This document shows, piece after piece, positions 11,142-11,941 of a stretch of DNA of 64,000 nt. Origin of the DNA: Escherichia coli. Its GTDB lineage: Bacteria; Pseudomonadota; Gammaproteobacteria; Enterobacterales; Enterobacteriaceae. The first letter of the stretch is position 1. Each line of letters begins with the position of its first letter. Below the pieces are notes generated by a model. It saw only the letters and a program-made list of their open reading frames with translations, ran no database searches and was not told the DNA's origin. Location: NCBI RefSeq assembly GCF_024502345.1, contig NZ_JALDNN010000001.1; one strand, written 5' to 3'. The translations under genes were made by a program, and so were the position numbers.

Positions 11142-11606
11142 TCAATGGTTTTCTTCTGTCTCTTGGGTGAGGCTTTCCCAGTCGGCAGGAGGATGTCCTC
11201 TTTTTAACATTTTACTGAATACGGTATAGGCATCTGTTTTTTTACCGTAGGTGCGCAGCGTGTTTTCATCGTTCATCCATCCCAGAATGATGACTTTCTC
11301 TTTTTCACTATAGCGAAAGAAGAGACGATAACGACCAGCATCAAATTTTACCCGTGACCAGTCTTTATTTTTCCCAGAGCCTAACGACTTGCCATGACGG
11401 AATGCCGGTGATGATGGATTGACCGTGATATGCTCCTCAATCACTTTATGGACTACCGCCAATAACTTTGTGGCGGCTTTTCTCTGATAATTTTCAGGAT
11501 CTTTTCCCTTTAATGTCTCGACTTCGGCAACTAAAGCGTCGTAGGTTTCCTGAAAACAGGGATGAGCATATAGCGCCCAACCATTAACCCTTTGTGGAAA
11601 ATCCAT
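11142..11606 (-). CDS. yhaV: Type II toxin YhaV (ribosome-dependent mRNA interferase)
   Basis: ORF track 154 aa; immediately downstream of and 1-bp overlapping prlF. Confidence 0.9.
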   Translation of the reverse strand: MDFPQRVNGWALYAHPCFQETYDALVAEVETLKGKDPENYQRKAATKLLAVVHKVIEEHITVNPSSPAFRHGKSLGSGKNKDWSRVKFDAGRYRLFFRYSEKEKVIILGWMNDENTLRTYGKKTDAYTVFSKMLKRGHPPADWESLTQETEENH

Positions 11607-11941
11607 TATTCGTCGTCGCCAATCTCATCATCAATGTTGACGTCCATGCCAGCGACAAGTTTCTTTCCTTGTTGAATGTTGAATGGACGAGTTTTTTGCG
11701 GGTTGTTCTGGATATCTGCATCCAGAAAACGCAAAAATGCATTCATAGTATGATCCTCCTGTTCATTTCCCAGTCGGCACATAAATACTTGCCCACCAGG
11801 CAGAATTTCGTAATGAATGCTGTCCTGGCCTGGCTTCAGTTTTAAAGCCTCACGCACTGGCGCGGGGATAGTTGTTTGTCCGCGTATCGTGACCTTTGAT
11901 TCAGTGGTCAGTACAGCGTGAGAGCGAGCATTAGCGGGCAT
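11606..11941 (-). CDS. prlF: Antitoxin PrlF (SohA), AbrB/SpoVT-type DNA-binding
   Basis: ORF track 111 aa with acidic C-terminal tail (DDEIGDDE); stop overlaps the yhaV start. Confidence 0.9.
   Translation of the reverse strand: MPANARSHAVLTTESKVTIRGQTTIPAPVREALKLKPGQDSIHYEILPGGQVFMCRLGNEQEDHTMNAFLRFLDADIQNNPQKTRPFNIQQGKKLVAGMDVNIDDEIGDDE

Follow-up and report, generated by a model that had tools for sequence, protein, structure and literature searches.

Work on the type II toxin–antitoxin (TA) pair prlF-yhaV goes back to 2007, and automatic annotation now marks it in almost all E. coli genomes. The closest described system is that of K-12, for which PMC8546651 and PMC7781912 cite Schmidt et al. 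(2007, J Mol Biol 372:894) and Choi et al. (2017, FEBS Lett 591:1853). The toxicity of K-12 YhaV can be rescued by PrlF (PMC8546651), and growth arrest and rescue are also described in PMC7781912. The toxin binds the ribosome and its cleavage of mRNA is frame-dependent (PMC7781912); it has a sub-codon bias and favours cleavage sites with G on their downstream side (PMC8546651); earlier in vitro work appears in Table 1 of the latter paper with ribosome-independent YhaV cleavage. The operon is repressed by a PrlF2-YhaV4 complex, whose binding site is a palindrome upstream of prlF (PMC7781912). The Pfam family of the toxin, PF11663, is counted among 13 BECR-fold toxin families of the RelE/ParE superfamily (PMC11980606). 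Stress-related expression changes have also been reported, on a descriptive level only (PMC11598369).

The pair at 11142-11941 of the window (the whole 64-kb stretch of DNA analysed here) is, judged by its sequence, the E. coli prlF-yhaV type II TA operon, orthologous to K-12 b3129-b3130, intact and in its usual chromosomal place (Table 1). It is bicistronic on the minus strand, with the antitoxin gene prlF (11941-11606) first and yhaV (11606-11142) second. The initial annotation had named the pair and described two minus-strand frames of 111 and 154 aa overlapping by 1 bp. Both points were borne out: the coordinates read exactly so, the prlF stop TAA and the yhaV start ATG share the A at 11606 in a TAATG junction (gaaTAATGgat), and Pfam, NCBIfam, RefSeq/K-12 synteny and residue identity to K-12 all agree on the identity. 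PrlF is identical to its K-12 MG1655 counterpart at 110 of 111 residues (99%; the sole change is D59N) and YhaV at 150 of 154 (97%; G89D, T145S, R148Q and T153N), and the 148-nt spacer upstream of prlF, which holds the palindrome and the promoter described below, differs from that of K-12 by a single base. The order garD-prlF-yhaV-agaR is the same in K-12, gene lengths are identical, and the exact PrlF and exact YhaV sequences are both present in public E. coli assemblies. The neighbours kbaZ/agaR and garD/garP agree with the RefSeq annotation for E. coli, and megablast of 10900-12300 gave matches in 5361 of 5426 complete E. coli genomes, where the underlying RefSeq features were yhaV, prlF, garD and agaR. 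We give a probability of about 93% to the whole reading, namely an orthologous prlF-yhaV operon encoding an autorepressed RelE-fold toxin module that was inserted long ago between garD and agaR. Nothing in the analysis contradicts the identification; the pair is an already known system at a known locus and nothing new as a gene call.

Table 1. Features of the prlF-yhaV locus and its surroundings (positions in the 64-kb window)
Feature	Position	Strand	Evidence or remark
agaR	10277-11086	+	yhaV-side neighbour; kbaZ beyond
Low-divergence tract, E. coli/E. albertii	11000..12197		~96-99% identity vs 88-89% in flanks; sliding window, mismatch positions
GC-rich hairpin (GCCCGCC...GCGGGC), possible shared terminator of convergent yhaV/agaR	11095..11129		55-nt yhaV-agaR spacer
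yhaV toxin CDS, 154 aa	11142..11606	-	ORF with ATG start
prlF (sohA) antitoxin CDS, 111 aa	11606..11941	-	ORF with ATG start
Shine-Dalgarno AAGGA	11951..11955	-	9 nt upstream of prlF ATG
Candidate sigma-70-type promoter	11978..12006	-	-35 TTTGCA (12006-12001), 17-nt spacer, -10 TATAAT (11983-11978)
Candidate operator palindrome TAATGCAttTGCATTA	11998..12013		overlaps -35 hexamer; presumed PrlF/PrlF-YhaV autorepression site
garD terminator hairpin AAAACATGGC-cttagt-GCCATGTTTT, then T-run	12042..12067	-	terminator scan; 10-bp perfect inverted repeat
garD	12090-13661	-	prlF-side neighbour; garP beyond

A homology search of both proteins gave strong YhaV and PrlF family profile matches. YhaV covered positions 1-137 of the 138 in Pfam PF11663 (Toxin_YhaV) with 181.3 bits (cut-off 35; E 1.2e-53), and it keeps all 24 residues that are invariant in a 51-sequence family alignment, including R85, K87, R92, R98, R118, Y120 and Y127. 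The NCBIfam profile search with YhaV returned no match, which is not counted against its membership because the Pfam match is strong. No relative of YhaV or PrlF was detected in a sequence search of the PDB, and the folds were therefore tested on AF2 models. In the YhaV model, predicted from the 51-sequence alignment (pLDDT 92.1, pTM 0.88), a short beta-hairpin lies at the N-terminus and helices at the C-terminus; the model also has two long helices and a three-stranded sheet. Roughly the top 40 Foldseek matches of this model in the PDB were all RelE/ParE-superfamily toxins, among them PfiT, HigB2, E. coli RelE, HP0892, M. tuberculosis RelE1/2, YoeB and ParE, with a modest best E of 1.1e-4, a probability of 1.0 and TM of 0.6-0.79 normalised to the smaller targets. 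An hhalign comparison of the YhaV family profile with E. coli RelE fell in the expected register and was not significant (E 0.41). The model thus supports the assignment of YhaV to the RelE-superfamily (BECR-fold) toxins, and the RelE/YhaV-type fold that the initial annotation expected of 11142-11606 is found in the RelE-type PDB matches to the AF2 model.

The antitoxin matched Pfam PF15937 (PrlF_antitoxin) with 141.5 bits (cut-off 32; E 1e-41) and the NCBIfam equivalog NF007429 with 169.5 bits (cut-off 125). Its match to the AbrB domain TIGR01439 reached 27.1 bits, below the 28.3 cut-off, and that to Pfam MazE_antitoxin was likewise weak and sub-threshold (E 0.00099). An exhaustive HMMER search gave 255 cluster representatives of PrlF homologues at E <= 0.001, and a 59-sequence alignment was used for an AF2 model with a pLDDT of 82.7. 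Residues ~12-58 of this model superpose on SpoVT, AbrB-N, AbrB-like archaeal (Sso7c4-like) and MazE structures (Foldseek/PDB; rmsd 1.4-2.9 A over 43-54 columns) at probabilities of 0.95-1.0 and weak E values (0.02-0.3), in agreement with the sub-threshold AbrB and MazE profile matches. The predicted N-terminus of PrlF therefore matches an AbrB/SpoVT/MazE-type swapped-hairpin DNA-binding domain. At the other end of the protein, 7 acidic and 2 basic residues occur among the last 20, the acidic tail that had been described for the 111-aa antitoxin.

Along the minus strand towards prlF, the garD stop comes first and is followed by the garD terminator hairpin, the palindrome TAATGCAttTGCATTA, the -35 and -10 elements, AAGGA and the prlF ATG. 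The 64-kb window contains the palindrome a single time, against 0.01 occurrences expected by chance. It is kept exactly upstream of prlF in K-12, E. albertii, Escherichia sp. E1V33, a metagenomic contig (L008) and a Salmonella homologue, while the spacer around it diverges across those loci; the TA genes of the metagenomic contig are 77% identical in nucleotides to those of the window. This conservation fits the published binding of PrlF-YhaV to a palindrome in the prlF promoter (PMC7781912). The promoter candidate is the best in the region, matching the consensus at 10 of 12 positions, with its -35 TTTGCA inside the right arm of the palindrome (minus-strand reading) and its -10 TATAAT found in the metagenomic contig too. 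Upstream, the prlF-yhaV cassette is bounded by the garD terminator hairpin, which has a folding energy of -13.3 kcal/mol and a z of -2.0. The GC-rich hairpin in the yhaV-agaR spacer was rejected as a convincing terminator: it folds with -20.2 kcal/mol, but its z values are weak on both strands (yhaV strand -1.9, agaR strand -0.5), and it has no clear U-tract. Rfam at the gathering threshold gave no RNA family within or beside the module.

The mechanism that best explains these features is the following. The operon would be transcribed on the minus strand from the sigma-70 promoter at ~11978-12006; prlF would be translated first, and yhaV would probably be translationally coupled to it via the TAATG overlap. 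YhaV would be a RelE-fold endoribonuclease that, like its K-12 orthologue, cuts ribosome-bound mRNA and halts translation, and PrlF would neutralise it through direct binding. By the same analogy, the AbrB/MazE-type N-terminal domain of PrlF could bind TAATGCAttTGCATTA over the -35 element, and the complex would repress its own operon. PrlF would be labile, presumably as a substrate of Lon, and its depletion could free the YhaV toxin. For the present proteins, toxicity, rescue, ribosome dependence and DNA binding are all carried over from the near-identical K-12 proteins and are to be read as expected properties.

The comparison with other genera bears on how the pair came to lie between the aga and gar clusters. 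No TA genes separate agaR from garD in Salmonella, Citrobacter, Kluyvera, Raoultella and Pseudocitrobacter, where the two genes are direct neighbours. In the first four, whose contigs were read after locating AgaR orthologues, the genes are convergent; the spacer measures 101 nt in Salmonella enterica, 59 nt in Citrobacter, 54 nt in Kluyvera ascorbata and 53 nt in Raoultella terrigena, and each of these four has its own terminator hairpin. The adjacency of aga and gar is therefore ancestral in Enterobacteriaceae and the TA pair derived. GC and GC3 are 0.437 and 0.413 in yhaV and 0.470 and 0.446 in prlF, and those of the flanking agaR, garD and kbaZ lie above them (0.525-0.553 and 0.563-0.597, respectively). 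YhaV homologues with 43-54% identity occur on 327 plasmids, 174 of them conjugative, and plasmid carriage is the classic setting of an addiction module. The closest non-syntenic homologue is a 65% identical toxin of Salmonella on ~90-kb plasmid- or phage-plasmid-like contigs with ParB, ANT and pRha. No transposase or integrase gene was seen near the module in the window. Taken as a sequence comparison, this supports an old insertion of the prlF-yhaV cassette into the terminator-bearing spacer that separates the convergent garD and agaR.

The insertion is ancient, and in E. coli the module is close to fixation, with 5161 of 5426 complete genomes (95%) carrying it. The garD-prlF-yhaV-agaR synteny is also found in E. 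albertii and in the metagenomic contig. The initial annotation had suggested an addiction-module-type acquisition between the two clusters. The insertion itself holds up, with the empty sites, the low GC content and the plasmid relatives on its side; a recent, strain-specific acquisition does not, because ~95% of complete E. coli genomes carry the module and E. albertii shares the site. Where the idea of an acquired addiction module had only genomic context behind it, five genera with real empty sites now support it. The ~5% of E. coli genomes that lack the module were considered as possible ancestral empty sites, and this was rejected, the two cases inspected being secondary deletions. ETEC6 has an IS1-associated loss spanning garD through the aga cluster, HH97 has a deletion from prlF to agaR, and a third genome, SCPM-O-B-8794, has kept a 202-nt remnant of prlF.

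Divergence from the E. albertii type strain is unevenly distributed along the locus. The low-divergence tract comprises the cassette and, on either side, the last ~100 nt of garD and of agaR; mismatches become abruptly fewer at ~12197 and more frequent again at ~10999. Synonymous divergence (dS) between the two species is 0.027 in prlF and 0.11 in yhaV, set against 0.56 in garD, 0.66 in agaR, 0.64 in garP and 0.36 in kbaZ, which makes the synonymous divergence of the cassette 5- to 20-fold lower than that of its flanks. Selective constraint is an unlikely cause, because synonymous sites are affected and the effect extends ~100 nt into both flanking genes. The pattern suggests that the cassette was exchanged between E. 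coli and E. albertii by homologous recombination after the species split.

A further observation concerns the ends of the cassette. A hairpin pattern scan of genome contigs gave 41 loci, of which five were relevant Enterobacteriaceae; the other 36 were set aside as chance palindromes in unrelated taxa. On the metagenomic contig, whose flanks are 91% identical to Pseudocitrobacter faecalis, the cassette is bracketed by two direct copies (~26-35 nt) of the garD terminator hairpin AAA(A/G)ACATGGCCTTAGGGCCATGTTTT. P. faecalis DSM 27453 has one hairpin copy between garD and agaR and no cassette, and Escherichia, the window included, has the upstream copy only. The pair of hairpins could be either a target-duplication scar or a substrate for precise deletion, and a duplicated terminator hairpin in one lineage would permit precise loss of the cassette. 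The outgroup genera are about equally far from E. coli in garD (81-83%), and both of two histories therefore stand for the Escherichia and metagenomic cassettes: a single old insertion that was later lost several times, or two events. The dS contrast and the hairpin bracketing may be of interest to students of how chromosomal TA modules persist and spread. A more ambitious reading combines these observations: the cassette would still be a selfish mobile unit of Enterobacteriaceae chromosomes that enters and leaves the garD-agaR spacer by way of a duplicated hairpin, it would have passed between E. coli and E. albertii long after their split by recombination through ~100 nt of each flanking gene, and its G89D toxin would possibly be attenuated. 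We hold this combination as a whole to be rather unlikely.

The G89D change deserves separate consideration. In the 51-sequence alignment the column of residue 89 holds G in 40 sequences (78%), A in six, F in four and D in one, that of the window, and only 27 of the 5426 complete E. coli genomes contain the D89 codon context (a 41-mer centred on GAT). In the YhaV model the residue sits in the turn between the strands that bear the invariant R85, K87, F88 and R92. Compared by sequence with the K-12 protein, G89D could alter the toxicity of YhaV. One alternative goes further and holds that the negative charge in the beta-hairpin loop would weaken RNA cleavage, so that YhaV would be attenuated and the locus would act mainly through regulation by PrlF. 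Its appeal lies in the surroundings of D89, which is placed among the conserved basic residues R85, K87, R92 and R94 (the last in 50 of 51 sequences), of which the counterparts in a RelE alignment are K52, K54 and R61. In this local alignment, which is not statistically significant, residue 89 falls at RelE R56, between K52/K54 and R61 and within the KxK...YRL active-site strands. The uniqueness of D89 in the family and its rarity among genomes also favour attenuation, as do the loss-of-function mutations of yhaV that chemostats repeatedly select (PMC5960147). However, position 89 is not invariant, the yhaV frame is intact with every invariant residue kept, the allele persists in many isolates (133 contigs), and the dN/dS of yhaV against K-12 is ~0.26. 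We consider attenuation unlikely, and an intact toxin remains the preferred reading of yhaV.

A second alternative takes the pair to be chiefly an anti-phage abortive-infection or defence module, and not a stress or addiction module. Both proteins have PHROGs families (phrog_14237 and phrog_26961, function unknown), a homologue is encoded in one Vibrio phage record, the ParB, ANT and pRha genes on the Salmonella contigs form a phage-plasmid context, and RelE/ParE-superfamily toxins are discussed as defence toxins (PMC11980606). Nevertheless, PADLOC-DB v2 gave no family for either protein at E <= 0.01, a literature search found no paper showing phage defence by PrlF-YhaV, and the neighbourhood is one of sugar catabolism rather than a defence island. 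This alternative is more doubtful still than attenuation, and nothing tested supports the link to defence or persistence for which the pair had originally been recorded. That both frames are chance or decayed ORFs without function has next to no probability: all that speaks for it is the general point that ORF lists are produced mechanically, and it is refuted by Pfam and NCBIfam matches far above curated thresholds, the retained invariant residues, the 95% conservation in complete E. coli genomes, the intact YhaV and PrlF homologues across genera and the conserved promoter and operator.

With the gene pair itself long described, the empty sites, the hairpin bracketing, the low cross-species divergence and the rare G89D allele are modest additions of the comparative analysis. 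Set beside K-12 PrlF-YhaV, the locus has the same place between garD and agaR, the same operon structure with its 1-nt overlap and the same gene lengths, and it differs by five amino-acid changes, one in PrlF and four in YhaV, of which G89D is rare. With RelBE, HigBA and YoeB-YefM it probably shares the core fold of the toxin, as predicted for YhaV, and a RelE-like sub-codon bias is known for K-12 YhaV (PMC8546651). Unlike the RelE-type toxins, however, YhaV is ~60 residues longer, with two long N-terminal helices in the model, and it has no significant sequence similarity to RelE; the antitoxin also differs, being of the AbrB/MazE type and not of the RelB or Phd type. On the antitoxin side, the N-terminal ~45 residues of the PrlF model superpose on MazE and the AbrB/SpoVT swapped-hairpin antitoxins, but the partner toxin of PrlF is RelE-fold and not MazF-fold as for MazE, and its C-terminal neutralising part is assigned to a Pfam family of its own, PF15937. 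The plasmid and phage-plasmid-like homologues share the two-gene architecture and, in the Salmonella copy, an identical operator palindrome. They are only 45-65% identical, whereas the window has a chromosomal copy, which in Escherichia is fixed at a single site and passed on vertically.

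The low-divergence tract shared by the window and the locus of E. albertii NBRC 107761 spans window positions 11000-12197, comprising the toxin-antitoxin (TA) cassette of prlF and yhaV and, on either side, ~100 nt of the neighbouring gene; identity is 96-99% within this tract and 88-89% in the flanks, and dS between E. coli and E. albertii is 0.03-0.11 for the cassette compared with 0.36-0.66 for the flanks. This suggests that E. coli and E. albertii have recombined across the species boundary at the cassette. The prlF-yhaV cassette of a Pseudocitrobacter-like metagenomic contig (L008) has a copy of the garD terminator hairpin on each side, the two forming direct repeats; Pseudocitrobacter faecalis DSM 27453 has one hairpin at the same site, without the cassette.

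A divergent patch was also observed within garD. Among 5,361 complete genomes of E. coli, only 123 are at least 99% identical to it and 5,218 are only 80-90% identical; against K-12 garD, the window shows 81-91% identity over ~12920-13120 and ~100% on both sides. The patch looks like an imported recombination segment common to a minority of strains, e.g., O121.

Coordinates of features in the window and in related loci
Feature	Sequence	Position	Strand	Remark
aga deletion site	window	~8062-8080		between agaV (8252-8725) and agaA/nagA (6805-7959)
yhaV codon 89 (GAT)	window	11340-11342		rare G89D substitution
garD divergent patch	window	12880-13160
rnpB (RNase P RNA)	window	18351-18727	+	318.6 bits
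naRNA4/BIME-type repeat (Rfam RF02564)	window	58460-58935	+	five tandem copies
garD terminator hairpin copies	L008	5534-5568 and 6474-6508
Lone garD terminator hairpin	P. faecalis DSM 27453 (L022)	6885-6902
prlF remnant	'E. coli' SCPM-O-B-8794 (L023)	1442-1643		202 nt, 81% identity

Compared with strain PapRG-06-5, whose aga cluster is full-length, the window's cluster lacks ~1.77 kb: agaE is deleted entirely, and agaW and agaF for the most part. The deletion in K-12 has the same agaW-side breakpoint but reaches ~700 nt beyond this one and into agaA; the window's agaA is intact. In SCPM-O-B-8794, a divergent Escherichia genome whose garD is 91% identical, the prlF remnant is directly followed by rsmI; a deletion has removed yhaV and agaR together with the aga cluster and the fimbrial yra genes.

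At the protein level, residue 89 of YhaV is mostly a glycine position flanked by invariant basic residues, and among 5,426 complete E. coli genomes 27 have the G89D allele. Many entries from Shigella sonnei, and some from E. coli, encode variant PrlF proteins 130-151 aa long (proteins P0172-P0180 and P0232-P0236) that match only over the first ~83-93% of PrlF, and part of them carry the wrong label 'deoxyribonuclease HsdR'. These variants probably result from frameshifts near the C-terminus, and recall the classical prlF1 mutation.
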